Below are positions 3,346 through 53,657 of a DNA stretch of 64,000 bases, one piece after another. Below the pieces are notes generated by a model that had not been told where the DNA came from, ran no database searches, and saw only the letters and a program-made list of their open reading frames with translations. The position numbers and the translations under genes are program-made. Numbering within the stretch: the first letter of the stretch is position 1; each line of letters opens with the position of its first letter. The DNA comes from an uncultured Christensenellaceae bacterium (GTDB taxonomy: Bacteria; Bacillota; Clostridia; Christensenellales; DTU072): positions 651 through 64,650 of the forward strand of contig CAYZOJ010000001.1 of the NCBI GenBank assembly GCA_964480195.1, in the 5' to 3' direction.

Positions 3346-4314
3346 ATGAGAATAATCACCCTCGCGCTGACTTTTGCCGGCACCCTCATCGGCGCCGGCT
3401 TTATCTCCGGGAAAGAAATCGTCGCGTTCTTCGGCGACGCCGGTATCTTTTCGATTGCGCTCTCCTGCCTTGCCATAGGCGGGTTTGCGTATGTTTTCAT
3501 TCGACTGGGCTCTCTGTACGACGGCGACATCGAGTTTGCCATACTCGGAAAACACAAAAACTTGGCGGTATATGCCTCTCGCACCGTGAATTTCATTACC
3601 CTTTGCGTGATGATTGCGGGCGGGGAGTACGTTCTTAACACCGTTTTTGAGATTCACGGAGGCGGAATTATCACGGCAGTTTGCGCGCTCCCTTTTGCAT
3701 ACGGCAAAGGCAATCCCGTCGGCATACTGAACTCGATTATCGTGCCGATTGCCGTCGGAAGTCTTATTTATATCGCGGTAAAAACTGCCAATCCACTACC
3801 CGCTTCGGGCTCTTTTTACGCCGTCAAACCGCTGATGTATTCCGCGCTCAACCTTTTGGCTTCCGGCTCCATCGTCGCAAAATCGAGTAAAGGCGTAAGT
3901 CGCTCGGGCGCCGTGGTCGCCTCACTCATCGTGTCTACGATAATTTTCGTACTCGTCCTCGCCATTAAAACCGCCATAATCGGCTACGAAAGTTCCGAAA
4001 TGCCCGTTGCCGACGTATTCGCTTTGCTCGGGCAAGAAAAACTCGGCGGAATTATTATCTATACCGCCGTATTCTCGACCGCCGTTTCCGCACTGCGCCT
4101 CGTTTCCGACGGACGAAAGTTCGCGCCCGTTACCGCCGTATCAGCGGGACTTATGGTTTCCGTCGTCGGATTCGGGAATTTGACCGATTTTACCTACCCT
4201 TTAATCGGAGCCGTCGGGATCGTTTACGGCGTGCTCTCTTCCGTAAGGCTCATATCGACTAAAATTAAGCCGAAACTTATCCGTTCCCCCTTGCAAGGCA
4301 AAGCAAATGTTTGA
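3346..4314 (+). CDS. YkvI-family membrane protein
   Basis: The N-terminus LTFAGTLIGAGFISGKEIVAFF matches the GAGFASGQE signature of YkvI-like transporters. About 10 hydrophobic segments. Confidence 0.75.
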   Translation: MRIITLALTFAGTLIGAGFISGKEIVAFFGDAGIFSIALSCLAIGGFAYVFIRLGSLYDGDIEFAILGKHKNLAVYASRTVNFITLCVMIAGGEYVLNTVFEIHGGGIITAVCALPFAYGKGNPVGILNSIIVPIAVGSLIYIAVKTANPLPASGSFYAVKPLMYSALNLLASGSIVAKSSKGVSRSGAVVASLIVSTIIFVLVLAIKTAIIGYESSEMPVADVFALLGQEKLGGIIIYTAVFSTAVSALRLVSDGRKFAPVTAVSAGLMVSVVGFGNLTDFTYPLIGAVGIVYGVLSSVRLISTKIKPKLIRSPLQGKANV

Positions 4315-12544: not shown

Positions 12545-12765
12545 AATCCGCTTAAATCAACGGCAACGCCGTTGTTAGCCATCACGCGATAGCGTGTGGT
12601 CAATCACACGTAGTGTGTATATCATCAACGCGTAGCGTTGTATATCATCACGCGCAAGCGTGTATATCATCAATCCGAAGGAATACACACTTCGTGTGAT
12701 GACATACAGCTCCGCTGATTACATACGCCTTTCGGCGATTACATACCTATCCTTCGGATTGGATA
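12545..12765. repeat. mini-hairpin array C (type-1 units, inverted relative to array A)
   Basis: About 10 consecutive 5-6 bp stem hairpins, e.g. caacgg-caacg-ccgttg, cacgc-gata-gcgtg, cacac-gta-gtgtg, aacgc-gta-gcgtt, cacgc-gcaa-gcgtg and cacac-ttc-gtgtg. They are separated by the linker tatatcatca, which is the reverse complement of tgatgatata in array A. Confidence 0.85.
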
Positions 12766-12799
12766 AAAAAAATCGCATCTTATCAAGATGCGATTTTTT
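12763..12799 (-). terminator. rho-independent terminator of tRNA-Glu
   Basis: aatcgcatctt (12771-12781) pairs with aagatgcgatt (12785-12795). On the minus strand it is followed by a run of 8 T. Confidence 0.8.
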
Positions 12800-19300: not shown

Positions 19301-22300
19301 TTCCTTACCGCTTTCTATAACGGTTTTGCTTAAGAAAGCAATCTTGGAAAGCGCGCTTTGTACATACGCGTTCAATGCGCTACTCAATGCGGTATCGAGC
19401 TTTTCTTCATCGGTCATCTCGGCTTCGAAACGGAAGTTGGACTTACCGTAGTTACCGCTGACGATATTGCCTCTTGTCGGGACATAAATCGTTTCTTCGC
19501 CGACCGTCACCGATTTTGTTTCGGTAATACTGATAACATAAGGCGCGACTTCGATTTTTCCGCCGGTGAGCGGGGTAAGGACTTTGTCGACGTCTTCCAA
19601 CCAAACGTAAATTTTACGAGCTTCGACTTTATAGGAGAAGTCCTGAACGACTATCTCGTAATTTTGAACGTTTGCGGTCGCCTTGGAAATGTCTACGGAA
19701 TCGCCGTACATCGTGTGTAGCCCTACTCCGAAATATGAGCCGTTATCCATAAAGGAGATTACGGGGGCGTTTTCGTCGCCTATTCTAAGTCCGAGGCTTT
19801 CCGCCGTATCGTCGTTCTTGAAGCCCTCGTAACTATATATATAGTTGGCGGGAGTTGCCATATATTTGGCGGTTATGACGTTGCCGGCTCCTGCTACCGT
19901 GGATTTCATGGTGAGCGTCAAGGTCGCGCGGACTACTTGAACTTCATACGAATCATCGAATACGATTTCGTAGTTTTCCATATAATAGCCGTTGCTCGAG
20001 AAGCTTACATTATAGCTATCGTCACCCGCATTCGTATATGCGTCCATCGGGTCGATTTCAGACAAGGAAGTATGTGCCCATACAACGTCGGAAAGGCTTA
20101 TGCCGTTTGCCTTATCGGTATCGTCGTCGGCGTATACCAAAATGTTGCGAGTGTCGACAGAGCCGTAATAGAACGAAATGCTTTGGTCGCCGTAAGTCTT
20201 GTTAAGGATTCCGCTGACTCCCGTCATCGCGTAAAGTTTTGCCTTGGCGACGGTGAGTGTGCCGGGAAGTACCTTTATATAATAGTTGTCCGCGGTGTAT
20301 CCGTTGACAGTCCAATCGTAATCGCCTGCGGGGAAGCCGTCAACGTTAAAGATTTCGACTGTGCCGTTTTCGTCGATATAGCAATGGCACCTCAAGGACG
20401 CTCCGCCCTTCAAAATGTCTTTTAAGTCGTTTACGCTATCTCCGCCCGCGAGTCCGCCGAAGCACGCTTGCAACTTTTCTCTTACGGACAATCCGCCGAG
20501 TCCGTTTGCCGTCGCGTACTCCTCAGCCATACGGATGTATTCGAGTTCTTTGGGATCGTTAGTATATTCCGAAATCGAATTGACGTCGAAATAGGTGTAT
20601 TGGCTTACGTATGCCTGTATATCGCTTTGCGAAATCTTGCCGTTATATACGAACTTGCTCTCGTCCGCGATGTCGTTCATCACAATCGTAAGAGTTGCTT
20701 TGCCGACGGTTACTTTTGCGGACGTGCCTATGTCGAGAGAGTAGTTTACGTTGCTTATGCTCATTCCGCTAAGGTCTACGCCGTACGTTCCCGCTTTAAG
20801 AATGTCGATATCCGCAACTATTACGGGCTTACCTTGAATCAACGACTTAATCAGCTTGTCGTCCGTAACGTCTATGCCGTTACTGCTGTCCCATATCGTG
20901 TAAGGAACTTCTACGCCGTCTTTTGCCGTGCCGTAAGGTACCGTTAAGGAATCCACTATTATCTTTAACTTGTGTTCCTTTACTTCCGCCGTGGGCGACG
21001 AGTTGAGCAATTTATAATCGCGGTTATAGTCCGCATAGTACATACTTATTGCGTACTCGCCCTTTTGCGAAGTCGTGTTGTCCCCTTCTGCGCCGAATAC
21101 GAACGCTATATAGGAGTTCTCCTGCGTTACGATGTTCTTGACGACTTTGAACTTGTCGGTTACGTTTTTGAATCGAGTTTCGGCTTTGCCGAGTTCGCCT
21201 TCGTCTATTGCGTCTATCGCGGAGTTTATACTCTCTTGCATCGCGCTTATGGCAAGCAATATGTTTGTCGTGTTTTCTTCCGTAAAGCAATTCAGGTTGG
21301 AGTTGCCGACGTCGTTACCGAACATAACAAGGGTTTGAAGAGCTTCGACAAGCTTGTTGCGTGCGTTGTTTGCTCCGCTTCCGAACGATACCGCTTCGAT
21401 GGCGTTTTTGAGCGTCTTATATTCGGAAGTGAGGTTTTCAAGCTTTGATTTGAACGTGTCGAATTCGTATCCCGCGTCTTTGGAACCGAAAGCAAAATTA
21501 TGGACTATCGGCGCGGTGCCGTAATACGAACTCATCGTAAGTTTGGCGTACTCGATAGAGAAGTCTTCGCCGTCATATGCTTTGGAGAGCGCGGCGGAGC
21601 TTATGGTTACGTTTATCGTCGATCTCTCGATTGTGTAAACGTAATTCTGCAACGTGGTAACGGCAAAGTTCCTGTCGGAGCAGGATATGACAACGTCGTA
21701 CGTGCCTACTGCCGCGTTATCGTTATCGTCGTTGCCGTTACGATCGAACGTGAACGATACGGTGGAGTTATCGAATCCCGTCGTGGCAACCGCGGGTGAG
21801 AACATATTGGAAGTTATGCTCGGTTCCTCGCCGTCGTAGACCTTAGAAAGGTATCTGTCGTTGATACGGATTTCCACACTGCGCGGGACTATCTTGAAGC
21901 GATACGCTTCCTTTAACGCGACGACGTAGTTGGAACTTAAAGAGTTTTCAGCTACTTTGATTTCGTATCCGACTACGGTTACGCCGTCTTCGGCATATCT
22001 GACGTCTTTTGCGGTAACCGCGGTTTCTCCCGAGTATATTCCGAGAGCAAAATACGGGGTACTCTCGCCTGCAATGGTATTTTCGATTTCATAATCCTGC
22101 GAAGTTAAAGTCGCACTCTGGTTATTGAATTCGCGCTCGATTGTGTTTTCGTCCGTTGTCGAATTGCACTTTATTACTATATAAACGGTGCGCGGTTTAA
22201 CGGTAAACGTGATTTCGGGCGAGTTCTCCGAATCGAGTTCGTAGTTCTTGTCCGTAATGTCGGTAACGCGAGTGGTATACGTGCCCGCATTGCGTACGAC

Positions 22301-25300
22301 CGATCTCGAAAGCGAAACGGTATCGTCGTCGAACAACGGACGGTTGTCTTCGTCTGTCGCGTACGTGCCGTCGTCGTTATAAACGTGTTGTAAATCGTCC
22401 GTGCTTATGTGCGCGCTGAATACGTAATCGCTACAGCAATACTCCAATCCGTCCGGAAGTCCGACGTAGTTGTCTATCGTAATGCTTACCTTTCTCTTGG
22501 AGATTACGTACGTATAATCGGCGTCCCCGATAAACGCGACGGAGTAGTTGTTATTGCTTATTTTAACCTTGACGGGATACGTGCCCGCGTCCTTGCTCAT
22601 GCCCTCGAACGAGAACGTTATAAACTTGCTTACCGTACCCGCGTCCGCATAATCGACGTTCTCGCCGTCGACGATTTCGTAAATAGTGTACTCGGAAATC
22701 TCGGGCTTTTTGCCGTCGTATACTTTGGTCAAGGCGCTTTCGTCAACCTTGATATACAAGCTCTTGCTTTCGACCGTGAGCTTGTCGGAAATGAATGTGA
22801 TATAGTAGTTATCGCTACCGAGAGTGCCGATTTGTATGTTGTAGTCGCCTTTGTTTTCGCCGGTTTCTCTACCGAGTGCGCCGGTGAGCGTATCTTTGAC
22901 ACCGTCCTTTACGATAAGTCCGCTCGCCGAGTTACCCTCTATGCCCGAAACGGTATAGGTGAGCACGGGATCCGCGGATCCGTAAATCTTGCTTGCGGGG
23001 TTTGCGGTTACTACTATGGGGCGTTTTGCGACTTCGATATAACCGCCGATATAAACGATATCATAGTTTTCGGCTTTGTCGCCCGTACCGTCGATGGAAA
23101 CGTCGACCGCGTGCATACCCGCCTCTTTGTATCTATCGGGAAGCGACTTATACGTAAGTACGCCGAGGGACGCCAAATCGTCGCCCGGAGCAAACGCGTT
23201 CGTTTCGTCGGTACACTCGGAGTTACCGTAGAAACGTACCTCCGGAACGACGGCTTCTTCGCCGTATACTTTGATTAAAGTGTCAGTCTTAACGTATATC
23301 GTGCGCTTGGTTATCGTTACTTTTGCGCCGGCTTCGTTTGTAAACCTAATATCGTAATTCGGGTTGTAAGTTATGAGGCTTCCTACTTCTATAGCGTACT
23401 CGCCTACGGAATTCTGCTCTCTGTTCTCTCTCGCAAGGTTACCTTTTATGACGTCGGTACCGTACAATCCGCTTTCGGCTTCACCGTCGACTGCAGACAC
23501 CGTAAACGGTATGGCGGAAACAGAGCTTTGTCCGTATGTGTACGTCAAAGACTCGGGAGTTATCACGACCGGACGTTTGGATATGTTGAACGTGCCTCTT
23601 TCAAATACGATTTCGTAGTTCTTGCCTACGATAGAGTTATTGACGTTGAGACTATAAATTCCTTGGGGAGTATCGTTACTGAGATATACTTCGTTACCGC
23701 TTGCGTCGGTGCAGACTATATCGAACATATCGAGCACTATAAGCGCGCCTTCAGAAAGATATTCTTTGCCGTCCGCGTCAACGAGAATTGCGGTGGTCGC
23801 GTACTTCTTATTGTACTCGGTATTAAAGCTTTCGCTATACAAGCCGTCGCCCTCGACGAATACGGAAAGAGGCTCCGCAAGTGCTTCTTTGGACGAATTG
23901 CCGAAAGTCATTTTGAGCTTGGGCATATCCTGTCCGTATACTTTGCTTTGAGATTTTGCAAAACCTACGTAAATCTTCTTCTTGGCAATCTTTAATATAT
24001 TCGTCGCGTCTTCGAATGCGTTGTGTATGCCGTCGCCCGCGTACGATACGACTATGCGATATTCGCCTGCGTCGCTCGGTAACGTCGTATAGTCAGCGCC
24101 CGCTTCACGACGAACGGAAAGCCATATGTTTTGCGGAATATATTCGATTGTAAAGTCGCTTTCTCCAAACGTAACCGTCCTTTCGGTCGCTTCGTACGAG
24201 GAATAACCGTTTATCGTTACGGAAGGCGCTTCCACCGAGCCGTAAACGAAATCGTAATCGTTTTGGTCCGAATACTTTATGGATACGTCCTTACGATCGC
24301 GCATATAGATAACGTAACTCGTGGTGTATTTTTGACCGTAATATGAATACGTTATCTCGATATGTTGAGCTTTGGTTTGACCGTCAAACTCTTCGTTGTT
24401 GAATTTAAGACTGTTGATATTGAACGTGCTCGACGCGTCGTTTATGGCAGCATCGGACATCCTCTTGGTTTCCGTCGTGCCGTTATCGTAATAAAGCATT
24501 ATCGTACCGCCGGAAACGTCGAACTCTTCGTGCTCGATATAGTAACGCTTGGGAAGATCGTTTACGTCGATTTTTACAAGGCTCTTCTCAACAACTCTAA
24601 AATCAACCGTTGCCGTAACGGGCGCCGTTTCGGTTCCGTATGTGTACGAAATCGTTACGGGACGCGCGTCGGACGTGCTGAGGTCGGCTATATCGTATCC
24701 TCCGGGATTGCCGTCGGAAACGTTGATGTACTCGGATTTAAGAGGTATAAGCGTCGAGGTTCCGTCGGTGAACGTCAGACGGAGCATATAATCGGATACC
24801 GCTATCGGCGCACCTTGAATGACTACGAACGCGTCGTCGATATTCGCTTCGAGAGAAACGGAATCGAGTTTCCTATCGCCGACGGTTACCACAACGGTAA
24901 GCGTACGTGCGTTACGCTCCGCCTCGGAAAGGGTCGCCTTTTCTTCCGCGGTACCGTAGAAAAGCTTTACGTATTGGAGTCCCGACGAGTTGGGGGAATA
25001 ATCGGAAACGATAAATCCGTCCGCATATTCCGAAAGAGCGGCGTTACGCATATTGCCGTTGGTTTCCTTGACGTTGATTTGCAACGTTCCCAAACGTACA
25101 AGACGATTGTCTTTGTCCTTAACCGCAAACGAGGTTATGTCAAATCTCGTGCCCGCGGATACTTCCGCCGTCGGGTCGGAACCGCTGTTCCAAGAAACTT
25201 CGCTGACAGACGACGAAACAACCGTTACCTTGACTTCTGCATCCAACGTCTTTTCGTCACTGTAATTATATTTTACCTGTATCGTCTGTTCGCCGATTTC

Positions 25301-27661
25301 GGAATCAAGACCGACAAACTGCAACGTGTTATCCGCAACGGCGTCTTCGATAACTATTTCTTCGTACGTATCGTTGTTGTATATCAGCCACAAGATCATT
25401 CCGTCATAATTGAACGTCAATCCGCTACCTTTGGAAACATAAGTCTTTTGGGTGGGTTCTTGCTTGATTTCGATACTTACGGCTTCTTTTGCGACAACTA
25501 TTACCTTGCTTTGAAGCGTGGCACCGTTATATTCTATTGTTACGATTCTTTCGCCGATAGATGTGTTGCGACTGTTATAATCGAGCATATCTTTGGTAAC
25601 TTCGACATACTCGTCTCCGCCCGCGCGACTGATTAGAAGCGCATAACCGGTAAGATCGATGTCTGTGCCTTCCGTTACGACGCCGAAATCTACGTTCTCG
25701 GAATCATAGCCACCGTCTTCGTTTTCTTTGCACAGCTCTTTTATCTCTTCGAACTCGTTGGTTACTTCTACCGTTATAAAGCACTCTTGCTCCAGTCCAT
25801 TCGTTTCGAAATAAACGCGATACGTGCCGACTTCGGTAAATTGGGTCGAGAGATCTTTGTCTTGCGGTTCGTCGGTATCGTATCCGACGCTAATCGTCCA
25901 ATCCTTTCCGAAATTGTCGGAACCCGCGTCGATATATTGAGCGTTGACTTCGCCTTCGTACGTTACTGCGAGAATGAGGTTTTCAAGGTTCAATTCTTCG
26001 CCTATGGTATATTGGATTTTTACGTCCCCGCCTAATTTGACTTCTTTGATTTTGCGAACTACAGTTACGGTAAAGGCGTTCTCGACGGTGAAACTCAAAT
26101 CGTATTCGTCGACATATGTAAGCTTTGCTGATACCGAACCTACTGCGGTATTGTCGAACTCGACGGTCGCGTCGCCTATCGGAAGATTCTCTTTTACGGC
26201 TCCACTGTTGTACGTAACGTTAATGGTGATGTCCGACGTGTCCGCCGTTCCGTTAAGGTATGCGATTACGCCTTCTTGATTGTTTAGTTCTATGTCGGTA
26301 ATTGCAAGCGCAATGACCTCGAAATCGTATTCTAAGGTTAAGTCGTTATACACAATGACCCAAGTCTGCTCGCCTGCCTCTTCGTAGCGATCTATGACCA
26401 TTCCGCCTTTCCAGTCAACGTACGCGGATATGAGATCGAAAGACTCGCCGACTTCGCCGTTGTTGTAAACGAGTGCTATTTGCCAGTCTTGAAGATTATA
26501 CTCGGTATCTTGATATACTTTGCCTTCTTCGATAACTTTTAAGCCCGTCGCTTCACGCGGGATAACGTCGATTTCAAGTTCGCCGACGGTGGCCAAACAA
26601 ACGTCGCCGTAATAGAAATTGATGTTTACCGTCTGTTTGCCCGCAAGTGTACGGTCATAACCCGAAAACGAAACTTTATCGGAAGGTATAGTGATTTCTT
26701 CACTCGAACCGTTGGTATACGTAACGGCAATCTCGAGTCCGTCTAAATCCAAGTCGAGATATTGATACTTGGGATGCGCTTCGTTTTGCTCTGCGTAATT
26801 CAAGATTTTATAAGAAGCAACGTCGCGATTGGCGATTTTGACGTTAAACTCCGTTTCGAAACCGCCGTACATGACTTTTGCGAATACGCTACTCGCAACT
26901 TGCGTGGAATCGAATTCGTACGTCAATCCCTCAAGCAGAGTGCCGTCCGCCGAGGTCATCGACATCGTGTGTGTATAGCCGTTGTTGTATTTGAGGGTAA
27001 TAATTCCGCCCGTAAGATCGAGCTCGCTGTCGCCGAGGTAGTAGACGGTTTGGTTGGGAACCGTGTGCATGTCGATACCCACAAGTTCGCGGTCTTCGAC
27101 CGTTACGTTGTACGTAGCGGAATAATCGGTGCCGTCGAGGTTGTACGTCACCTTTACTTCTTGCAAACCGAGTGTGTTTCTATCATATCCCGAACACATT
27201 TCGCGCGTAACGGGAACCGTGAGAGCGGTTCCGTCCGAGAATCCGATTACCAAATAACAATCCTCGAGATTGAGTTGTTGCTCGACAATGTAGTTGACGT
27301 TTTCATCGGGAACGATAAGATTGACCGACGCCACTTGCGGACGCATTACCGTAACTTTGAACGTAACGGTTACTCCTTCGTATGAGATCAGTATGTACTG
27401 CTCACCGAGAGTGTCGGGCGAATACGATGATACCATATCAGGCGTAACCGAAACTTTACGCTCGCTCTGGTCGACATACACTACGAGTATGCTCGCGTCG
27501 GTAAGATCGAGCTCTTCGCCTAATACGTACGAAGTTTTGGGCGAAGAATAAATTTCGATATGGTCGATTTTGGGTTCTGCGGTACAAGACACAAACGCGC
27601 ATACCGCGCACACCGTTACAATCAGCGCAATCAACGTCAATAAAAGTTTTCTGTTTTGCAT
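16301..27661 (-). CDS. giant surface lipoprotein (about 3786 aa) with bacterial Ig-like (Big_3-type) repeats and MBG (YGX-type) domains
   Basis: The ATG at 27661 lies after aaagagg, giving MQNRKLLLTLIALIVTVCAVCAFVSC (lipobox-like). In the first ~1000 aa, repeats of the form KTxYxxGExLDLTGxxIxVxYxxG...V occur many times. Mid-protein modules such as KIYGSADPVLTYTVSGIEG...GDYNIQIGTLGSDNYYITF match the MBG YGX type. The last ~900 aa are unassigned. The track start at 27733 is an upstream extension. Confidence 0.9.
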   Translation of the reverse strand: MQNRKLLLTLIALIVTVCAVCAFVSCTAEPKIDHIEIYSSPKTSYVLGEELDLTDASILVVYVDQSERKVSVTPDMVSSYSPDTLGEQYILISYEGVTVTFKVTVMRPQVASVNLIVPDENVNYIVEQQLNLEDCYLVIGFSDGTALTVPVTREMCSGYDRNTLGLQEVKVTYNLDGTDYSATYNVTVEDRELVGIDMHTVPNQTVYYLGDSELDLTGGIITLKYNNGYTHTMSMTSADGTLLEGLTYEFDSTQVASSVFAKVMYGGFETEFNVKIANRDVASYKILNYAEQNEAHPKYQYLDLDLDGLEIAVTYTNGSSEEITIPSDKVSFSGYDRTLAGKQTVNINFYYGDVCLATVGELEIDVIPREATGLKVIEEGKVYQDTEYNLQDWQIALVYNNGEVGESFDLISAYVDWKGGMVIDRYEEAGEQTWVIVYNDLTLEYDFEVIALAITDIELNNQEGVIAYLNGTADTSDITINVTYNSGAVKENLPIGDATVEFDNTAVGSVSAKLTYVDEYDLSFTVENAFTVTVVRKIKEVKLGGDVKIQYTIGEELNLENLILAVTYEGEVNAQYIDAGSDNFGKDWTISVGYDTDEPQDKDLSTQFTEVGTYRVYFETNGLEQECFITVEVTNEFEEIKELCKENEDGGYDSENVDFGVVTEGTDIDLTGYALLISRAGGDEYVEVTKDMLDYNSRNTSIGERIVTIEYNGATLQSKVIVVAKEAVSIEIKQEPTQKTYVSKGSGLTFNYDGMILWLIYNNDTYEEIVIEDAVADNTLQFVGLDSEIGEQTIQVKYNYSDEKTLDAEVKVTVVSSSVSEVSWNSGSDPTAEVSAGTRFDITSFAVKDKDNRLVRLGTLQINVKETNGNMRNAALSEYADGFIVSDYSPNSSGLQYVKLFYGTAEEKATLSEAERNARTLTVVVTVGDRKLDSVSLEANIDDAFVVIQGAPIAVSDYMLRLTFTDGTSTLIPLKSEYINVSDGNPGGYDIADLSTSDARPVTISYTYGTETAPVTATVDFRVVEKSLVKIDVNDLPKRYYIEHEEFDVSGGTIMLYYDNGTTETKRMSDAAINDASSTFNINSLKFNNEEFDGQTKAQHIEITYSYYGQKYTTSYVIYMRDRKDVSIKYSDQNDYDFVYGSVEAPSVTINGYSSYEATERTVTFGESDFTIEYIPQNIWLSVRREAGADYTTLPSDAGEYRIVVSYAGDGIHNAFEDATNILKIAKKKIYVGFAKSQSKVYGQDMPKLKMTFGNSSKEALAEPLSVFVEGDGLYSESFNTEYNKKYATTAILVDADGKEYLSEGALIVLDMFDIVCTDASGNEVYLSNDTPQGIYSLNVNNSIVGKNYEIVFERGTFNISKRPVVITPESLTYTYGQSSVSAIPFTVSAVDGEAESGLYGTDVIKGNLARENREQNSVGEYAIEVGSLITYNPNYDIRFTNEAGAKVTITKRTIYVKTDTLIKVYGEEAVVPEVRFYGNSECTDETNAFAPGDDLASLGVLTYKSLPDRYKEAGMHAVDVSIDGTGDKAENYDIVYIGGYIEVAKRPIVVTANPASKIYGSADPVLTYTVSGIEGNSASGLIVKDGVKDTLTGALGRETGENKGDYNIQIGTLGSDNYYITFISDKLTVESKSLYIKVDESALTKVYDGKKPEISEYTIYEIVDGENVDYADAGTVSKFITFSFEGMSKDAGTYPVKVKISNNNYSVAFIGDADYTYVISKRKVSITIDNYVGLPDGLEYCCSDYVFSAHISTDDLQHVYNDDGTYATDEDNRPLFDDDTVSLSRSVVRNAGTYTTRVTDITDKNYELDSENSPEITFTVKPRTVYIVIKCNSTTDENTIEREFNNQSATLTSQDYEIENTIAGESTPYFALGIYSGETAVTAKDVRYAEDGVTVVGYEIKVAENSLSSNYVVALKEAYRFKIVPRSVEIRINDRYLSKVYDGEEPSITSNMFSPAVATTGFDNSTVSFTFDRNGNDDNDNAAVGTYDVVISCSDRNFAVTTLQNYVYTIERSTINVTISSAALSKAYDGEDFSIEYAKLTMSSYYGTAPIVHNFAFGSKDAGYEFDTFKSKLENLTSEYKTLKNAIEAVSFGSGANNARNKLVEALQTLVMFGNDVGNSNLNCFTEENTTNILLAISAMQESINSAIDAIDEGELGKAETRFKNVTDKFKVVKNIVTQENSYIAFVFGAEGDNTTSQKGEYAISMYYADYNRDYKLLNSSPTAEVKEHKLKIIVDSLTVPYGTAKDGVEVPYTIWDSSNGIDVTDDKLIKSLIQGKPVIVADIDILKAGTYGVDLSGMSISNVNYSLDIGTSAKVTVGKATLTIVMNDIADESKFVYNGKISQSDIQAYVSQYTYFDVNSISEYTNDPKELEYIRMAEEYATANGLGGLSVREKLQACFGGLAGGDSVNDLKDILKGGASLRCHCYIDENGTVEIFNVDGFPAGDYDWTVNGYTADNYYIKVLPGTLTVAKAKLYAMTGVSGILNKTYGDQSISFYYGSVDTRNILVYADDDTDKANGISLSDVVWAHTSLSEIDPMDAYTNAGDDSYNVSFSSNGYYMENYEIVFDDSYEVQVVRATLTLTMKSTVAGAGNVITAKYMATPANYIYSYEGFKNDDTAESLGLRIGDENAPVISFMDNGSYFGVGLHTMYGDSVDISKATANVQNYEIVVQDFSYKVEARKIYVWLEDVDKVLTPLTGGKIEVAPYVISITETKSVTVGEETIYVPTRGNIVSGNYGKSNFRFEAEMTDEEKLDTALSSALNAYVQSALSKIAFLSKTVIESGKEGKNIEYYKGSELYAHSITKVGYTQDDVNGDYVTMKLGGMSFATKEYNVVLDYKEFKVDIQREVRSVIAEWTEKLLAEDLSNMEEVKKKLNVAVGMYMMVNGSLESGFIVDGSNGSIVIEGLDSCAVGKTNYITVKYDYQCKLFDLMSNLNYEVSYATTIGSQTQEVRVDDARQNTYDTTKVDGLSSYIPTRFYANKTSTVSDPEISGLTYGKLNNATGDSTFVSTKNAYDFDGIRMRVRLAETEGENKFTVVFAGDVSSNGYALAMTFNRSDVSNAVVTLYSVSGGKLTAMSTANYAMDCSKLFDGYSHDLRIKFNKELITVIASIDGSSGAIKDISAIDGITSARAYLTGADSDARKFYISSTMKYALGSLTLTEQGLYEHTGTFIDIAQNANGVISVDTSEAFFKTNASLLNNFFGLPSKLGSAFTTEYYVDGEKAEEPANVILGRGSHMIELALYYNGALLDTDYTIVTVTRSVTSLAFDVSGGTGEIVTAGSKLRMYTPLVNSSFDGDSDLVTSDAATARSYMLYATDTESSTGNGMYAPSYYSHSFTLDRIASYAQLTGNAIYEAGTNVLYYNLFAEGGYSTNNINGLKTATSDYALSIATNPNVKGARLRFERHQNSQEVYDKTETYDYYYDVYLDVRCIEKDATEVTTVTTQLYSNVKGSALGVGFEVRAYYDKLGAMGNGSAKIRIRQIGTTTWQDVDLASIGDIGDAQPFVMLTGNATRVTNNKLLFVENDHAYNDYLIDDEYTMYNGSAVTLKAGSTLKLADGVGTARYSAYNNIEFEFGVESANGTVGMALAESAVYDEYNPNLFYGAYLDYDLEANKLVFKFRYGSVYSLAQEFKLSESNSAVGTHKITVDLNMDEMNLKNYVGGDSELGTNLVRNGVTLTDSKGAKLYYHKIDVTIDGESAVFYLPHYADMNGWYMANGSVYGSGDANKYSDIDINDAPATFISIYNYNSVTAPEATSLTVYKYVTAIADSGAYTQRALKNKTPLI

Positions 27662-27807: not shown

Positions 27808-28268
27808 CCGCAAAGCGGTGCGCAAGCAAAGCTTGCGCTATACAATCCTTGCGGATTGATGATATACAACGCCTACGCGTTGATGATATACACACTACGT
27901 GTGATGATATACACGCTATCGCGTGATTGACCACAACGGCTGTGCCGTTGATTAAGGTATTTAGGAGCGGAATGACAATCCCTCCGCGCTACGCGCTATA
28001 CAATCCTTACAGATTGATGATATACAACGCCTACGCGTTGATGATATACACACTACGTGTGATGATATACACACTGCGTGTGATGATATACACGCTATCG
28101 CGTGATTGACCACAACGGCACAGCCGTAGACTGAGGGATTGTCATATATATTCTTAAATACCACAACTTTCACGAAGTGAAAATTTCACCTGCCGTAGGC
28201 AGATTTCACCCGCGAAGCGGATTTCACCTTGCGCAAGCAAGATTTCACCGGCGAAAGTCTCTTTCGCC
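27808..28268. repeat. mini-hairpin array A (type-1 units x2 blocks, a core inverted repeat, then type-2 units)
   Basis: About 19 hairpins. The type-1 linker tgatgatataca occurs 7 times, with stems caacgc/gcgttg, cacac/gtgtg, cacgc/gcgtg and caacgg/ccgttg. A block of about 158 bp starting gcgctatacaatcc occurs twice in tandem (27835 and 27993). Type-2 units (28168-28268) use the linker (a/g)atttcacc with stems tttcac-gaa-gtgaaa, cctgcc-gta-ggcag, ccgc-gaa-gcgg, cttgc-gcaa-gcaag and ggcgaaag-tct-ctttcgcc. Confidence 0.9.
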
Positions 28269-28272
28269 CTGT

Positions 28273-28466
28273 GGCGCATTGTATAGCTCTCGGCGGGATA
28301 TTTAGTCCTATAATGCGAAAAAATCGGAGCGGAAGCTGTACAAAGGTACGCGGGCGGAGATTTGGGCGCCCGTAAGGGCTTAACAAGCCCTTTATTTCGC
28401 ATTAGAGGGCTGAAGAGCCCGTCGAGAGCGTGTAGACAAATAAAACCCGAAAAATTAAAAATAGGC
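28273..28466. ncRNA. unclassified structured module, copy 1 (candidate RNA or ssDNA element; strand undetermined)
   Basis: Colinear with 51048-51250 in the same orientation. The closing helix is gctctcggcggg (28286-28297) with cccgtcgagagc (28418-28429). The inner helix aatgcgaaa (28312-28320) with tttcgcatt (28395-28403) shows three compensatory pair changes in copy 2. Nested hairpins are gtac-aaag-gtac, cgggcg-N10-cgcccg and aagggctt-aac-aagccctt. Confidence 0.5.
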
Positions 28467-28483
28467 ATCCGCTATATCTGTTT

Positions 28484-28520
28484 ATACAAAGAAAAAAGCT
28501 GTCCGAGCGTCGAACAGCTT
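28484..28520 (-). terminator. rho-independent terminator of the IS200/RAYT-like gene
   Basis: aagctgt (28496-28502) pairs with acagctt (28514-28520), with an inner cga/tcg extension. On the minus strand it is followed by TTTTTTCTTTGT. Confidence 0.75.
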
Positions 28521-28558
28521 ATCTTCTTACTTCAAGTTAAATGCCTATTTTTCGGGTT

Positions 28559-29869
28559 TTATTTGTCGTAACACATTGAGGTGAGCGTCATTATTCGGTT
28601 GGGATCTTCAAAGGTGTTGATTATACCGAACTGCTTGATTACGAACTCGACGCTCGTATTTCTCTTTTCCGCAACGTATCTGATAAGCTCGACAAGGAAA
28701 TTATCGTTGAAATACACGACTTGTCCGCCGGCAACCGCACAATACGCAAATCCCATCATCGAGAAAATCTGGTCGATGCTGTATCCGAGTCTGTCGGAAA
28801 GCAAAAGTATGGTGTCGCGCATAAGCTTGTTGCCTTCGGGTACGATTTGCAACGCTTCTACGTTCTGGTCGTACGTTTGGCGCATATTGACGGTAAGTTC
28901 CGCCATAACCTTTACGAGAGTAACATACTTGTCGGTGCGGGTTATCGCAAGCTTCGAGCATATAGCATCGTAACTGAATCCACCTCTCTCGTTGATTTCC
29001 GCAATAATCCTCGGCATAAGGTTGTTGGGAATGGCTCTCTTGGTGTAGCAACCATAGTCGATGAGCACGTTTTCGATGGTCGCACGGAACTTGTCGATTT
29101 CGGGAAGATTAAGGAAGTCTTCCGGTATCGTACGCAAGCCGTCGTCATACGCTTCCGCCAAAAGCTTTTCGGCTTTAGCAACGCCCATCGTTTCATACAA
29201 ACTGTCACGGCACGCGAGCGAACCAGCGTCGGAACACGCCTTGCCGTAAGAGCTGAACGGATACGCCCAACTGTGCGTTAAAAAGTTCGCGTACGGCTGA
29301 CTTTCGATAATGGCTACGCTTTCGGCTAAATCTTTATGTTCCTTAACTTTCTTTACGCGAAGTCTGCTCTTGAATACAAAACCCGCCGTCTGGAAGTTCT
29401 CGTTAAAGAACTTGGCGTAAAGCGTGTTTGCCGTATCGAAGAATCTACGGTAGCTTACGGGCGTTTGGTCATATGACGCGATAAGGAAATATGCCCTATT
29501 GTTGATGACGGAGTATGCAACTATATCCACGGGGAACGATCCGACTGCCGTCATTATACATTTGAGATAATACATCTTTGCGCCCGGGGTGGGGAATACT
29601 ATACATTTGGGTCTGCCGTCTACCGCTACACGATAGAAATCCGGTTTGACGGTATTGTACGCGTTGACGCGACGATCCGCCCTACGTTGGTCAGACGGAA
29701 GTCTGCCGATGGGGGCTGCGTTGATTATTGCGCGGGTCGGCTTACCGTGTACAAATCCTGCTTGAATAGTGTTCGCCTCTACGGGTCCCACGTTTGTAGG
29801 ATTGGTTACGCGGATAGTCTCCTGCGGAGTGTTACACGAGCATCCGTTGTGATTGTGTTCGTTTGCCAT
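28559..29869 (-). CDS. IS200/RAYT-like (COG1943, Y1 HUH transposase fold) homolog with degenerate catalytic motifs and an HTH-like C-terminal region
   Basis: The core aligns by eye with Firmicutes IS200-like/REP-associated tyrosine transposases. Examples are DFYRVAVDG vs GIYHVMLRG, VAYSVINNRAYFLIA vs YAYCLMxNHxHLLI, GFVFKSRLRVKKV vs GHLFQDRFKSExV, AIIESQPYANF vs RYIHQNPVKAG, and YPFSSYG vs YKWSSY. HUH is replaced by R-A-Y and the helix Tyr is absent. 436 aa. Confidence 0.65.
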   Translation of the reverse strand: MANEHNHNGCSCNTPQETIRVTNPTNVGPVEANTIQAGFVHGKPTRAIINAAPIGRLPSDQRRADRRVNAYNTVKPDFYRVAVDGRPKCIVFPTPGAKMYYLKCIMTAVGSFPVDIVAYSVINNRAYFLIASYDQTPVSYRRFFDTANTLYAKFFNENFQTAGFVFKSRLRVKKVKEHKDLAESVAIIESQPYANFLTHSWAYPFSSYGKACSDAGSLACRDSLYETMGVAKAEKLLAEAYDDGLRTIPEDFLNLPEIDKFRATIENVLIDYGCYTKRAIPNNLMPRIIAEINERGGFSYDAICSKLAITRTDKYVTLVKVMAELTVNMRQTYDQNVEALQIVPEGNKLMRDTILLLSDRLGYSIDQIFSMMGFAYCAVAGGQVVYFNDNFLVELIRYVAEKRNTSVEFVIKQFGIINTFEDPNRIMTLTSMCYDK

Positions 29870-50611: not shown

Positions 50612-50640
50612 ATTATAGCATAGATATATAGAAAAGTAAA
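50612..50640 (-). promoter_or_regulatory. putative promoter of the 1860-aa surface protein operon
   Basis: On the minus strand, TTTACT (50640-50635) is followed by a 17-nt spacer and tgcTATAAT (-10 at 50617-50612, with an extended TG). SD aaggtg precedes the ATG at 50579. Confidence 0.45.
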
Positions 50641-50675: not shown

Positions 50676-50930
50676 GCTTAGTGCTAAGATGGGCTGACGG
50701 AATGATGTTTGCCTTACGGCAATGAGGCTTGCGCAATGATGTTGCCTTCGGCAATACTGCTTGCGCAATGAAATCTTGCTTTGCAAGATGAAATCCGCAT
50801 TCGCGGGTGAAATCTGCCTACGGCAGGTGAAATATTCGCTTCGCGAATGTTGTGGTATTTAGGAGCAGAATGACAATCCCTCAGTCTACGCCGTAAACGG
50901 CGTATCCAGCTCCCTTTACACAAAGGAGCC
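50676..50930. repeat. mini-hairpin array B (type-2 units and core motif, inverted relative to array A)
   Basis: Hairpins include ttgcc-ttac-ggcaa, ttgcc-ttc-ggcaa, tcttgc-ttt-gcaaga, ccgc-attc-gcgg, ctgcc-tac-ggcag, attcgc-ttc-gcgaat and cgccg-taaa-cggcg. The linker (g/a)tgaaat is the reverse complement of atttca(c/t) in array A. The core motif ttgtggtatttaggagcagaatgacaatccctcagtctacg lies at 50849-50889. Confidence 0.85.
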
Positions 50931-51047
50931 TTAAAACTTGCGTAAATTTACTGGTTTTCTTCTAAATTTACCTATTTTTCGATGTTAATACTATCGTTCT
51001 ATAGCGAAATACAGCCGTCAAGATGAACAATACTGTCGCCAATTATA

Positions 51048-51250
51048 GGCGCATTGTGTAGCTCTCGGTGGGATATTTAGTCATATAACGCAAGAAAATC
51101 CGAGCGGAAGCAGTACAAGCGTACGCGGGCGAGGATTTGGGCGCCCGTAAGGGCTTAACAAGCCCTTTATCTTGCGTTAGAGGGCTGAAGAGCACAGCGA
51201 GAGCGTATATAGTGGGGAGCAAGTAAAACCCGAAAAATTAAAAATAGGCT
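51048..51250. ncRNA. unclassified structured module, copy 2
   Basis: Same order and orientation as 28273-28466. The closing helix is gctctcggtggg (51061-51072) with cacagcgagagc (51193-51204). The inner helix is aacgcaaga (51087-51095) with tcttgcgtt (51170-51178). The three nested hairpins are conserved. Confidence 0.5.
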
Positions 51251-51269
51251 ATCCGCTAACGTTCTCCGT

Positions 51270-51305
51270 ATAAGAAAAATAGACTAACGTGTTGCCGTCA
51301 GCCTA
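51270..51305 (-). terminator. rho-independent terminator of the 771-aa gene
   Basis: On the minus strand, TAGGCTGAC-ggcaacac-GTTAGTCTA forms a 9-bp stem with two G.U pairs valid only in the minus sense. It is followed by TTTTTCTTAT. Confidence 0.6.
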
Positions 51306-51341
51306 TTACTTTTCTAATCATACCCGCCTATTTTTCGGGTT

Positions 51342-53657
51342 TTACTTGCTCTTCACGATAAAAATAAGACCTGCGTGCGGAGCAAGTTTGATTGCCTTGC
51401 CGAGATTAAACGGACGTCCCTTTTGCATATTCCTTATCTCGGGACAACGGACTTTTTTGCCGACTGTCGTGAACCCGAGTTTGTTTTCGACGCCTATTTC
51501 GAACGTCTTTTTCTCTTCGGAATCGTTATACAAAACGGCTATCATATCTTTGCCGTTGATATACGACGTGCAATAGACGGACGCGTTATCCGATCTCACG
51601 GGATTGGTCTTGTCCCAATAGCCCTTTAACTCGGCATTTCCTATGTCGAAATCGCGGAATACGCGGTTAAGATCCTCTATCGCCTCGGTCGTTTCTTCAT
51701 CCTCACCGACACACGGGATTATTCCCGTCAGCAATCCCCTGCATATGCCTATCGGCGAGAGCGAATCGACGGTGAAGCCGTACGGCACACCGCTTACGCC
51801 TATCAATGTGGAATCGAGATCACGATCTCCGTATCCTTTTACTGCAACCTTAGAAACGAACGGCAATACGTCCGCATAAGTCGAAAGAGTATCTATGCGA
51901 CAGTCGGAATCCCCGTATCTGTTCGACAACACAAGTTCGGTAAATCCGCCCCCTCTTTTGCGGGTCATACATTTTTGTATTCTCTCCGCAACCGTAGGGG
52001 TAAGCGACGGATTGTGCATCGAAACGAAGTCGATATCCGCAACGCCTATAAGCCTCTTTAACGACTCGACGTAATAGTTATCGAACCTTGACGCCGTGGC
52101 TATGTGCCCGAACTCGCCAAAGTCCGTACGGAAACGGTCGAACATTATTTCGCCGTCCAACGACATTAGCGCGTAATACTCCGCGACATCGGATCCGAGC
52201 GTGTTGATACCGTATTCCAAACCGCACGCAATATCACGCTTATGGGCTACCAAAGTGAGCTTTTTGAGAGCCTTAACATCGTCTTGGACACTCTTTACGT
52301 GAGCGTTGCCCGCAGAAGGACGACCTACCGACAACGACGTCGTGCAGTAGCGCGAAGCGCGTGCCGACTCATCTTGGAAACCGCCTTGACCGAGTGTATA
52401 AATCCTGTTCCCTGCCGAAGCTCTGAGATCCAACGGACGGAACGGAGTAAGGTGTATATCGAAGCAGAACGACACCTTGTCGCCCTTTGCAAAAATCATC
52501 TTGCCTGTATACGCCGAGAACAACGCGCCTTCGTCTATTCTGCGAACGGTTACTCCGCCTTTGCCGTAATTTGCCCAAGTGGTCTTAGGCGGACGGGCGC
52601 CCGTTTCCAACGGGGCTCCGTATACGGGGAAGTCGCAGTTGTCGCGGTTTTCTCTAAGTCTTATACGGGCACCGCAGTTTACGTTGCCGATATAAAGATA
52701 GTCCCCGCCGACTTCCGTCCATTTGTAATCGAGGTCTTTGAGTCTACCCGGAGCCATACCCATTCCGACACCGTAATCGGCAGACGCAAAATACGCGTTC
52801 AGGCGTATGTCTTCGACAATGGCGTCTTCAAACGCGTCTATCGTAACGGTATAATGCAAAACGCCCTCGTAATGCGCTTCTGCGTTTACGGTTATATGCA
52901 ACTTATCGGATCTGCCGTCGGAAACTATTAACGCGGAATCGGGCTTATCGGTAATCTTTATACGGTTATACTTAAACTTTTGCCCTTCCGCGATAAACTC
53001 CATGGGACGGAAAAACAGCGACGCCGTTACCTCGTCCGTAAGCGCGTTGGATTCGGAATAATAGCTCTCGACGTCATTTATAAAGCCGTCGCCCGTAAAA
53101 CTCACGCGTTTTCCCGTAAACGTTACGGAGTTCTTGTCCGCCGAAACCGCGTAGAAACCCGGGACGAGTTTCTTATCCATATATTCGGTGGAATTGAGCC
53201 ATTTTAGCCTTGCAAGCGTGCTTCCGTCGTCCGTACCCTCGTTAAAAACGAGTTTGTCGGTAAGCTTGAATACGAGTTCCACTTTTTCGCCGTCAACGTA
53301 AACGTCCGTGCGATATTCGTCGATATCCGCTCTCGAGAGGTCTACGCCTATCAACAGAACGGTTATCGCGCCCGCGTTTACTCTGACGGGACGGGTAAAT
53401 TTTTTACCGTCCGCGCCGACGCCTTCGGAATTAAAGCAAGTTACGGCTTTATCGAAATTCTTGTTTGCACCTCTGAGCGGTCCCGTTTTGACCTCGACAA
53501 GCGCGTCAAAGCCCGTCAAAACAGCCAGCTGAACGACGTAATACTCGTGCCTTGACGGCGTATATTCGAACGTACGTCCGTCGTTTAACCCGTCAAGCAC
53601 GGAAAGATCGTAACGGTCGCTAATTACCGTTTTTCGGTCAATCGAATAAATTTTCAT
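51342..53657 (-). CDS. uncharacterised 771-aa protein, possibly a glycoside-hydrolase-like enzyme (operonic with GH2)
   Basis: Long ORF with SD ggagaa and no signal peptide. It sits 12 nt downstream of the GH2 gene. I cannot assign a family from sequence alone; the GH123/DUF4091-like idea is only a guess. Confidence 0.6.
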   Translation of the reverse strand: MKIYSIDRKTVISDRYDLSVLDGLNDGRTFEYTPSRHEYYVVQLAVLTGFDALVEVKTGPLRGANKNFDKAVTCFNSEGVGADGKKFTRPVRVNAGAITVLLIGVDLSRADIDEYRTDVYVDGEKVELVFKLTDKLVFNEGTDDGSTLARLKWLNSTEYMDKKLVPGFYAVSADKNSVTFTGKRVSFTGDGFINDVESYYSESNALTDEVTASLFFRPMEFIAEGQKFKYNRIKITDKPDSALIVSDGRSDKLHITVNAEAHYEGVLHYTVTIDAFEDAIVEDIRLNAYFASADYGVGMGMAPGRLKDLDYKWTEVGGDYLYIGNVNCGARIRLRENRDNCDFPVYGAPLETGARPPKTTWANYGKGGVTVRRIDEGALFSAYTGKMIFAKGDKVSFCFDIHLTPFRPLDLRASAGNRIYTLGQGGFQDESARASRYCTTSLSVGRPSAGNAHVKSVQDDVKALKKLTLVAHKRDIACGLEYGINTLGSDVAEYYALMSLDGEIMFDRFRTDFGEFGHIATASRFDNYYVESLKRLIGVADIDFVSMHNPSLTPTVAERIQKCMTRKRGGGFTELVLSNRYGDSDCRIDTLSTYADVLPFVSKVAVKGYGDRDLDSTLIGVSGVPYGFTVDSLSPIGICRGLLTGIIPCVGEDEETTEAIEDLNRVFRDFDIGNAELKGYWDKTNPVRSDNASVYCTSYINGKDMIAVLYNDSEEKKTFEIGVENKLGFTTVGKKVRCPEIRNMQKGRPFNLGKAIKLAPHAGLIFIVKSK

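Follow-up and report, generated by a model that had tools for sequence, protein, structure and literature searches.

What are the tandem hairpins that occupy the 763-nt spacer between a GH123 gene and a gene for a giant MBG-domain protein, and why does a related array lie in the opposite orientation at a second locus of the same chromosome? The window, by which we mean the whole 64-kb stretch of DNA that was analysed, is ordinary chromosome of an uncultured Clostridia bacterium and contains dnaE, whiA, murB, uvrC, glycoside hydrolases and giant MBG/Big_3 surface proteins. Hairpin arrays occur in it at three loci only (A, B and C), all of them intergenic. Locus B, at which the question arises, has the following parts.

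50612–50640, minus strand: promoter-like site of the gene for the 1860-aa MBG-domain protein, TTTACT-17-TATAAT, with an upstream TG
50690–50768, plus strand: type-3 array, hairpins TTGCC-TTAC-GGCAA and CTTGCGCAA(G), AATGATG-type linkers
50769–50848, plus strand: array B, four Gut-1-type hairpins with ATGAAAT/GTGAAAT linkers, identified by BLAST to array A and sub-threshold in Rfam
50849–50886, plus strand: core copy B, GTTGTGGTATTTAGGAGCAGAATGACAATCCCTCAGTC, aligning with 28129–28167 (minus) and partly with 27956–27984 (plus)
50887–50929, plus strand: two more hairpins past core B, TACGCCG-TAA-ACGGCGTA and GCTCCCTTT-ACAC-AAAGGAGC
51048–51212, plus strand: module X copy B, about 160 nt, multi-stem, 78% identical to 28273–28437 with four compensated pairs
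51218–51356, no strand assigned: long inverted repeat copy B, 25-bp stem with a 7-nt bulge

Relative to the MBG gene, array B is located upstream of the promoter-like site and is not part of the transcription unit. Core copy B holds an AGGAG-N4-ATG motif that starts an 8-codon ORF. One arm of the inverted repeat holds the GH123 stop codon, and the repeat encloses the GH123 terminator (minus strand, 51307–51278). The type-3 array has the same orientation as array B and no counterpart in locus A; Tandem Repeats Finder gives a row at 50701–50771, with a period of 32, at its position, and linkers of this type are also present, antisense, beside Gut-1 arrays in a locus from another genome (L014).

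Array B is an inverted homologue of an array at locus A

The corresponding parts of locus A are given below.

27839–27955, plus strand: type-1 array copy a, five hairpins with (G)ATGATATA(C) linkers, 24.5 bits against Rfam Gut-1
27956–27984, plus strand: core copy A(+), after the first type-1 array; BLAST pairs 27956–28001 with 50854–50898 at 84.8%
27993–28133, plus strand: type-1 array copy b, with one extra unit, 29.9 bits against Rfam Gut-1
28129–28167, minus strand: core copy A(−), adjoining the 3′ end of the Gut-1 array as read in sense
28168–28268, minus strand: array A type 2, a Gut-1 array of five hairpins, with the Rfam match at 28178–28250
28273–28437, plus strand: module X copy A, 78% identical to copy B
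28445–28567, no strand assigned: long inverted repeat copy A, overlapping the stop codon of a 436-aa ORF and enclosing a terminator (28520–28496, minus)

Local alignment of the reverse complement of 28100–28290 with 50676–50940 gave a score of 177, compared with 16.4 ± 2.3 (maximum 27) for shuffled sequences and 18 for the same-strand control. BLAST paired 28125–28247 with 50890–50769 at 89.5% identity over 124 nt (E = 2.5e-33). The block common to both loci comprises four hairpins, the (G/A)TGAAAT linkers between them and then a core of 38 nt, GTTGTGGTATTTAGGAG..ATGACAATCCCTCAGTC. The hairpins at 50774–50788, 50795–50806, 50814–50826 and 50834–50848 match those at 28228–28241, 28210–28220, 28190–28202 and 28168–28182, respectively. 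Homology ends at the limits of this block: 50676–50768, with the AATGATG-linker array, has no partner in A, and the extra hairpin of array A (28250–28268) has none in B. The proposal in the first-pass annotation that array B is an inverted homologue of the type-2 part of array A, with linkers and core in common, is therefore well founded.

That annotation had also stated that several stems changed on both sides, which is an overstatement, as only one stem covaries between A and B. Among the 13 differences between the arrays, four fall in stem columns, and these form two compensated pairs within a single stem, TTTCAC/GTGAAA in A and ATTCGC/GCGAAT in B. The probability that four random stem substitutions would keep all 20 pairs Watson–Crick is about 2e-4. 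This stem was the first example offered, and its compensated pairs are real; in the second (cttgc...gcaag), the stem is unchanged, the loop has changed and one T·G has become T–A at the stem base. A formal alignment thus places the similarity across hairpins, linkers and core, beyond chance, with one covarying stem.

The genes that flank array B are all on the minus strand, and the array is inverted relative to them. A 300-nt block downstream keeps its strand at both loci, as had been claimed (28273–28565 versus 51048–51348, 78% identity over 304 nt), so the array is also inverted relative to that block. That array and module are independently orientable parts is one reading of this flip against a module of constant strand; separate duplication or inversion events via the palindromic hairpins would fit equally well. 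Paralogy between array B and the type-2 part of array A is near-certain: both are copies of a Gut-1-type array and carry, on the 3′ side, a core peculiar to the lineage.

In locus A, type-1 copies a and b are a tandem duplicate, 80% identical by BLAST, and copy a is 82% identical to locus C. The last hairpin of copy b has an inverted loop (TGT to ACA) exactly at the orientation flip (28115–28127), abutting core(−). The plus strand of module X copy B folds with a minimum free energy of −69.7 kcal/mol (z = −7.4), and the minus strand is less stable (−51.9, z = −4.8). Module X matched no Rfam family, and the one match to its pattern in metagenomes was a chance match in unrelated DNA. When module X, the core and the inverted repeat were compared with the loci fetched from other genomes (BLAST, nhmmer), only orthologous inverted-repeat arms matched; plasmids and phages gave no match. 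The core pattern GGTATTTARGAN{4,8}ATGACAATCCCTC was absent from viral, species-representative genome and JGI metagenome contig collections. The core is lineage-specific.

The hairpin unit is Gut-1

The array unit is not novel. The minus-strand segment 28178–28250 matches Rfam Gut-1 (RF01706) at 67.2 bits (E = 3.2e-11), above the gathering threshold of 50 bits, and this family was described on the basis of 43 sequences from human-gut metagenomes (Weinberg et al. 2010, Genome Biol 11:R31, PMC2864571). In that study, GUGAAAU or GUGAUAU linkers join tandem short hairpins from uncultured gut bacteria, and Gut-1 is listed as a probable non-coding RNA to which neither an organism nor a function is assigned (PMC2864571). 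Rfam annotates the family as Gene; sRNA. The flanks of the published seed alignment already hold arrays in both orientations, and, within the library searched for Gut-1, RF01706 and GTGAAAT hairpin repeats, Weinberg et al. 2010 is the one paper that names the motif.

Array B scored 34.5 and 28.4 bits against the Gut-1 model, which is sub-threshold, and its assignment to the family follows from the 89.5% identity between arrays A and B. Type-1 arrays, whose linkers are GATGATATAC, are likewise sub-threshold (24.5–29.9 bits). A Gut-1 array has at least three tandem hairpins with conserved linkers and covarying stems, and arrays A and B both have four to five hairpins with (G/A)TGAAAT linkers. 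The hairpin unit was already catalogued and hence is not new; what had been lacking is its context.

A dispersed family in intergenic spacers of gut Clostridia

Species-representative genomes were scanned for three GTGAWAT linkers at hairpin spacing. At least 120 stretches match this pattern, most of them from uncultured gut Clostridia of humans and ruminants; carriers among the matches listed include Oscillospiraceae, Acutalibacteraceae, Ruminococcaceae, Christensenella and others, and a few matches are chance microsatellites. A further 22 Gut-1 matches at or above the Rfam threshold lie in 18 MAG loci, and second arrays were found within 8-kb loci of other genomes. The units are near-perfect hairpins of 11–19 nt in direct tandem, separated by linkers of 7–10 nt. 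A Clostridia MAG from roe deer has the same convergent pairing of Gut-1 and type-1 arrays as locus A. We consider it near-certain that the Gut-1-type arrays, including types 1 and 3, constitute a dispersed, multi-copy intergenic family of uncultured gut Clostridia.

The third locus of the window joins two arrays directly.

12555–12762, no strand assigned: locus C, a type-1 array on the minus strand (12555–12682) head-to-head with a type-1-like array on the plus strand (12683–12762) that has GATTACATAC linkers

Locus C is 81–87% identical to locus A by BLAST and lies between the tRNA-Glu terminator (minus strand, about 12765–12797 as read from the sequence) and a second terminator upstream of uvrC. 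At all three loci, the arrays follow the intrinsic terminator of the upstream gene and precede the next promoter-like site (minus strand; 50640–50612, 27733–27705 and 12481–12453 for loci B, A and C, respectively). The type-1 arrays contain a weak antisense TGGTCA-N17/18-TATCAT site. The orientation of arrays relative to flanking ORFs is near random (29 versus 22).

Relatives differ in the presence of the arrays. In relatives whose GH123 is 94% and 81% identical, both known from short-read assemblies, the contigs end about 25 nt past the GH123 stop, inside the repeat, a pattern typical of sequences present in many copies. The GH123–MBG spacer of more distant relatives (65% and 56% identity) measures 140 nt (L005) and about 290 nt (L006), compared with 763 nt in the window. 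These short spacers consist of a terminator and a promoter/5′ UTR, with neither arrays nor module, and in L005 the orthologous MBG promoter and 5′ UTR are conserved. The window spacer is a lineage-specific gain, or the others have undergone a loss. No exact protein match is on record for the two flanking window genes, and neither a target-site duplication nor an excision product was observed.

Stem pairing and array geometry suggest a possible role as DNA

Across 262 units (222 distinct), 95.3% of stem pairs are Watson–Crick, compared with 35.4 ± 1.7% when partners are shuffled, so pairing is clearly constrained. The 1267 stem pairs include 13 G·T and 21 A·C, which gives no wobble signature; for 46 tRNAs encoded in the same DNA, counted over their acceptor and T stems, the corresponding numbers are 46 and 5 (Fisher P = 5e-7). 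Terminator hairpins, with 10–12 G·T and 8–9 A·C, did not discriminate, and the tRNA control was used in their place.

Triloops account for 140 of 223 loops, and 136 of the 140 are closed by C–G. Position 1 is T in 117 and position 3 is C in 98; the loops are mostly T-N-C on the GTGAAAT strand, which corresponds to G-N-A on the opposite strand. The idea that a GNA triloop is favoured was tried and rejected: DNA parameters give the GNA strand no advantage (−10.9 versus −11.1 kcal/mol), so the published thermodynamics of C(GNA)G mini-hairpins are the one basis left for the loop argument.

Where two arrays are adjacent in the fetched loci, they converge in 15 cases, run in the same direction in 1 and diverge in 0, and the convergent pairs abut, in most cases without a central terminator. 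Because GTGAAAT and ATTTCAC are complementary, such a pair folds into a branched stem, and linker-to-linker pairing improves the fold by 11–17 kcal/mol with RNA and DNA parameters alike. The branched-foldback model does not extend to locus A, where the linkers of the converging type-1 and Gut-1 arrays lack complementarity.

On balance we favour, at slightly better than even chances, the reading that the arrays are DNA-level palindromic repeats that behave like REPIN/BIME and are copied, expanded and inverted by way of their hairpins and linkers. The hairpins would then act as DNA structures, single-stranded or extruded, and not as strand-specific RNA. Arrays would grow by duplication of a unit with its linker, and blocks would be copied or inverted between loci through recombination or template switching at palindromes and linkers, a step in which a trans-acting, structure-specific protein may help. 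Complementarity of the arms might be kept by selection for foldback, by intra-hairpin correction or by both, and the arrays would be tolerated in the untranscribed spacer from terminator to promoter. On this reading the arrays would spread as DNA, and they might also affect the host.

A conserved PF05635 cassette carries Gut-1 arrays

The Pfam family found most frequently near arrays is PF05635, with 5 members among 118 flanking ORFs. PF05635 comprises the 23S rRNA intervening-sequence proteins, four-helix bundles related to Avd of diversity-generating retroelements (PMC10053308). The fetched loci contain 10 PF05635 genes, 7 of which lie within 155 nt of an array, and at least 5 of these 7 point away from the array 5′ start. 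In these five or more, the gap between array and gene is 40–54 nt and holds a strong promoter and a ribosome-binding site. This PF05635 subfamily has more than 8000 matches, hundreds of them at 90% identity or above, mostly on short contigs. Among the copies sampled, all 26 that had 260 nt or more of sequence upstream have the same module, in the order terminator, Gut-1 sense array, centre, antisense array, promoter and gene.

The module is usually situated just behind a tRNA gene, and the tRNA differs from locus to locus. The distance from the tRNA end to the PF05635 start codon is near-constant, 266–274 nt, in six loci (Arg-ccg twice, Tyr-gta, Glu-ttc twice and Leu-taa), and is 203 nt after Arg-acg. 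Pro-cgg and Gln-ctg lie about 500–600 nt upstream, and the neighbours of the cassette also include non-tRNA genes. No reverse transcriptase and no template or variable repeat was seen in the neighbouring gene calls. The PF05635 module appears to be a conserved, probably mobile cassette of which Gut-1 forms the structured 5′ part. Its gene, very abundant, highly conserved and situated beside tRNA genes, is a concrete candidate for a partner protein.

Locus C resembles this cassette in several respects. It lies directly after tRNA-Glu, its terminator resembles the cassette terminator, and its arrays are followed by AGGAGTTGA, which equals the ribosome-binding sequence of the cassette and here runs straight into a terminator. 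An Acutalibacteraceae MAG (L126) contains a gene-less homologue of the locus C composite, 71.6% identical over 190 nt, with compensated hairpins.

A tentative interpretation, which we put well short of even chances, is that Gut-1 arrays are not an sRNA but the cis-acting, structure-forming DNA of an unrecognised mobile cassette, with an autonomous form and the non-autonomous forms of the window. The autonomous form would comprise a terminator, a convergent array pair, a promoter and the Avd-like PF05635 gene, and would insert immediately 3′ of tRNA genes and of some other genes. Loci A, B and C, which lack the gene, would be rearranged derivatives that stand to it as REPINs stand to RAYT genes.

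Alternative explanations

The arrays could instead work as cis-acting RNA hairpins in either orientation, as exonuclease barriers, termination aids or insulators in read-through transcripts. Their position directly after terminators, those of tRNA genes included, and before the next promoter suits this explanation, and a perfect Watson–Crick palindrome folds as well from one transcribed strand as from the other, which would account for the indifference to orientation and for the missing G–U. REP elements in E. coli 3′ UTRs, for which such a role has been proposed, are a precedent (bioRxiv 10.64898/2026.03.23.713779). We nevertheless judge it unlikely, as it leaves the asymmetric linkers, the T-N-C loop bias and the 15:0 convergent geometry unexplained. 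Moreover, the arrays lie past apparently competent terminators, so that little RNA should arrive, and the orthologous spacers work without them.

It is somewhat more doubtful that Gut-1 arrays are trans-acting sRNAs, that is, multi-hairpin scaffolds in which single-stranded GAA/UGAAAU linkers bind or sequester a protein, with A and B as paralogous sRNA genes. Weinberg et al. rated Gut-1 as ‘certainly’ RNA from covariation (PMC2864571). When folded with RNA parameters, 96 of 101 arrays are more stable on the Rfam sense strand than on the antisense strand, because the linker adds a U·G and an A–U pair at each stem base; these conserved pairs could mark the functional RNA strand, and this stability is the only strand-specific feature that favours RNA. 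The loops and linkers are strongly strand-asymmetric, and there are paralogues of constant architecture in other MAGs, some with a terminator after the array (L014; compare locus C). By contrast, no sense-strand promoter-like site was found ahead of any window array. At many loci, the T-run of the upstream terminator comes right up to the 5′ end of the array (a terminator abuts the 5′ start in 14 of 70 arrays), leaving no room for a promoter. The variable stem positions do not tolerate G–U, unlike those of tRNAs in the same DNA, and the copy number, the assembly breaks and the abutting convergent pairs would be unusual for sRNA genes.

A phase-variation switch, in which inverted cores serve as recombinase sites that control the giant MBG/Big_3 genes downstream of loci A and B, is very improbable. 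Both loci do lie upstream of very large surface-protein genes, the two cores of locus A (27956–27984 and 28129–28167) form an inverted repeat, and the block of Gut-1 array plus core is opposite in orientation at A and B. However, the cores of locus A are the only inverted-repeat pair, and they enclose a type-1 array rather than the Gut-1 block, with the promoter outside; locus B has a single core and, by BLAST, no flanking inverted repeat. A scan of 32 window proteins found no transposase or recombinase, the same arrays adjoin unrelated genes and tRNAs in other genomes, and the L005 orthologue retains the promoter and has no array. The inverton reading was rejected on the lack of a promoter between inverted cores, of such cores around locus B and of a recombinase in the scanned proteins.

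Least credible of all is the translation of small repetitive peptides from the AGGAG-N4/5-ATG of the core, which was rejected: a Shine–Dalgarno-like AGGAG does precede the ATG, and the locus A(+) frame runs through the next array, but unit periods of 18, 19, 21 and 24 nt do not keep the frame, the peptides are unconserved (the three ORFs have only MTIP(Q/P) in common), the A(−) core copy has lost AGGAG and every sense linker contains TGA.

Implications and comparison with known systems

Gut-1 has been an orphan ‘sRNA’ in Rfam since 2010, and the window and the fetched loci now give it a host clade, a location and a behaviour. If the arrays are DNA repeats, as we favour, the Rfam ‘gene’ Gut-1 should be reclassified, and gut Clostridia would gain a counterpart of REP/BIME/REPIN, which are known mainly from Proteobacteria. 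For assembly and annotation, the arrays account both for breaks in contigs and for spurious ORFs in MAGs.

The first-pass annotation had likened the arrays to BOX and BIME elements. The likeness is apt for behaviour (multiple copies, intergenic position, either orientation, gain and loss of units, and patchy occurrence among lineages). Pneumococcal BOX (boxA–boxB(n)–boxC) is an intergenic repeat built of modules, with tandem middle units that vary in number; it is found in either orientation and predicted to be strongly structured. Its modules measure 45–59 nt, belong to another taxon, have other sequences and are not linker-joined arrays of single hairpins. The likeness to BOX is architectural only.

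With Gut-1 as published, the window shares the tandem hairpins and linkers, array A lying above the Rfam threshold and array B and the type-1 and type-3 arrays below it (24–35 bits). The absence of a G–U signature, the multi-copy intergenic spread, the convergent pairs, the position in the 3′ flank of tRNA genes and the linkage to PF05635 do not appear in PMC2864571 or its supplement. Compared with the genes for Avd of diversity-generating retroelements and for intervening-sequence proteins, the PF05635 genes of other genomes are preceded by a convergent Gut-1 pair in a conserved cassette beside tRNA genes; the window contains no PF05635 gene, and the link between protein and array is an association.

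REP elements are imperfect palindromes of 30–40 nt with a 5′ GTAG (PMC3333891). REP/BIME/REPIN are short, multi-copy extragenic palindromes whose inverted partners fold back and which are associated with RAYT (TnpA-REP) transposases (PMC3333891, PMC3116915). The units described here differ from REP in having GTGAAAT or GATGATATAC linkers, no GTAG and no sequence similarity. They are also direct repeats, unlike the alternating orientation of REP, and it is whole arrays that are inverted. Foldback of the REP-plus-iREP type is therefore absent among the units of an array; among whole arrays, 15 of 16 adjacent pairs converge and are predicted to fold back through linker pairing, which may be comparable, whereas loci A and B have no complementary pair and the pair at locus C is divergent. 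No RAYT/Y1 protein (PF01797-type) was found among the 32 window proteins or in the 25 most frequent of the 122 families matched by the 118 flanking ORFs. As neither a 30–40-nt GTAG palindrome nor a RAYT was found, we file the arrays as elements that work like REP/BIME and not as REP/BIME themselves. What they share with REP/BIME/REPIN is the occupation of extragenic space in many copies (here, three intergenic loci in 64 kb), together with clustering, tandem amplification, sequence variation, and presence or absence among relatives.

Module X and the inverted repeat at gene ends

Module X is a structured element of ~160 nt in which nested stems surround three hairpins, and which is present in the window in two plus-strand copies.

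28273-28437 (+), module X
51048-51212 (+), module X

The two copies share 78% identity and differ by four compensated pairs. The plus strand, which is antisense to every neighbouring gene, folds at -69.7 kcal/mol (z = -7.4), and the minus strand at -51.9 kcal/mol (z = -4.8). Module X matched no Rfam family, and a homolog was not found in any collection searched. We consider it a candidate new structured RNA.

The window also has two copies of an inverted repeat whose 25-bp stem is interrupted by a 7-nt bulge.

28445-28567, inverted repeat
51218-51356, inverted repeat

Its proximal arm covers the last codons and the stop codon of the gene upstream, either the 436-aa ORF or the GH123 gene. The distal arm matches the proximal arm of its own locus, with three compensated pairs, and the intrinsic terminator of the same gene lies inside the repeat. 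Short-read contigs of the closest relatives (L001, at 8316-8343, and L002-L004) stop ~25 nt past the GH123 stop codon. Because these ends fall within the inverted-repeat arm, MAG assemblies of this lineage are fragmented by these repeats.

Short reading frames and promoter-like sites at the arrays

The core, a stretch that follows an array, carries AGGAG-N4/5-ATG ACA ATC CCT.

27956-27984 (+), core
28129-28167 (-), core
50849-50886 (+), core

The AGGAG-N4/5-ATG starts short ORFs that lack conservation (MTIPQSTP* at array locus B), and the ACAATCC is complementary to GGATTG in the first unit of the type-1 array, a pairing that would close off the whole array. The core may be what is left of a gene start, or a stem that closes the array. 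All sense-strand linkers (GTGAAAT, ATGAAAT, GATGATATAC and AATGATG) include RTGA, in which a start and a stop codon overlap. The sense array therefore has TGA in all three frames and the antisense strand in none, possibly by coincidence.

Each type-1 array contains one weak promoter-like site, TGGTCA-N17/18-TATCAT, directed antisense to the array.

27904-27933 (-), promoter-like site
28083-28112 (-), promoter-like site
12597-12625 (+), promoter-like site

Array loci A and B each lie upstream of one of three giant genes for predicted surface proteins with MBG and Big_3 domains.

16301-27661 (-), 3786 aa
34496-38167 (-), 1223 aa
44997-50579 (-), 1860 aa

The region upstream of the 1860-aa gene's ortholog in a more distant relative (L005) is without arrays.

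Arrays and repeats in other genomes

A conserved cassette runs from a terminator through a convergent pair of Gut-1 (RF01706) arrays and a promoter to a PF05635 gene, which encodes an Avd-like four-helix bundle.

L015 4814-5436, PF05635 cassette
L059 760-1393, PF05635 cassette
L130-L159 (gene start ~1501) and others, PF05635 cassette

It lies 266-274 nt beyond the 3′ ends of tRNA genes of several kinds. Members of this protein subfamily are very numerous and highly conserved, with at least 90% identity across families, and are found chiefly on short contigs.

Another locus, L014, holds a tandem-duplicated composite of ~270 nt (3350-3900, minus strand), ordered as a Gut-1 sense array, the Shine-Dalgarno-like GTGAAGGAAG, a hairpin, a perfect bidirectional terminator and an antisense type-3 array. 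In this MAG every array points to a terminator, in contrast to most loci.

At L009, a separate repeat, GTAGGGGTCGACGTCCCCGACGACCCG, is interspersed with the hairpin arrays, in three copies within 300 nt.

L009 4855-4885, repeat copy
L009 4988-5015, repeat copy
L009 5145-5160, repeat copy

This repeat resembles REP elements in having GTAG at its 5′ end and a palindrome after it.
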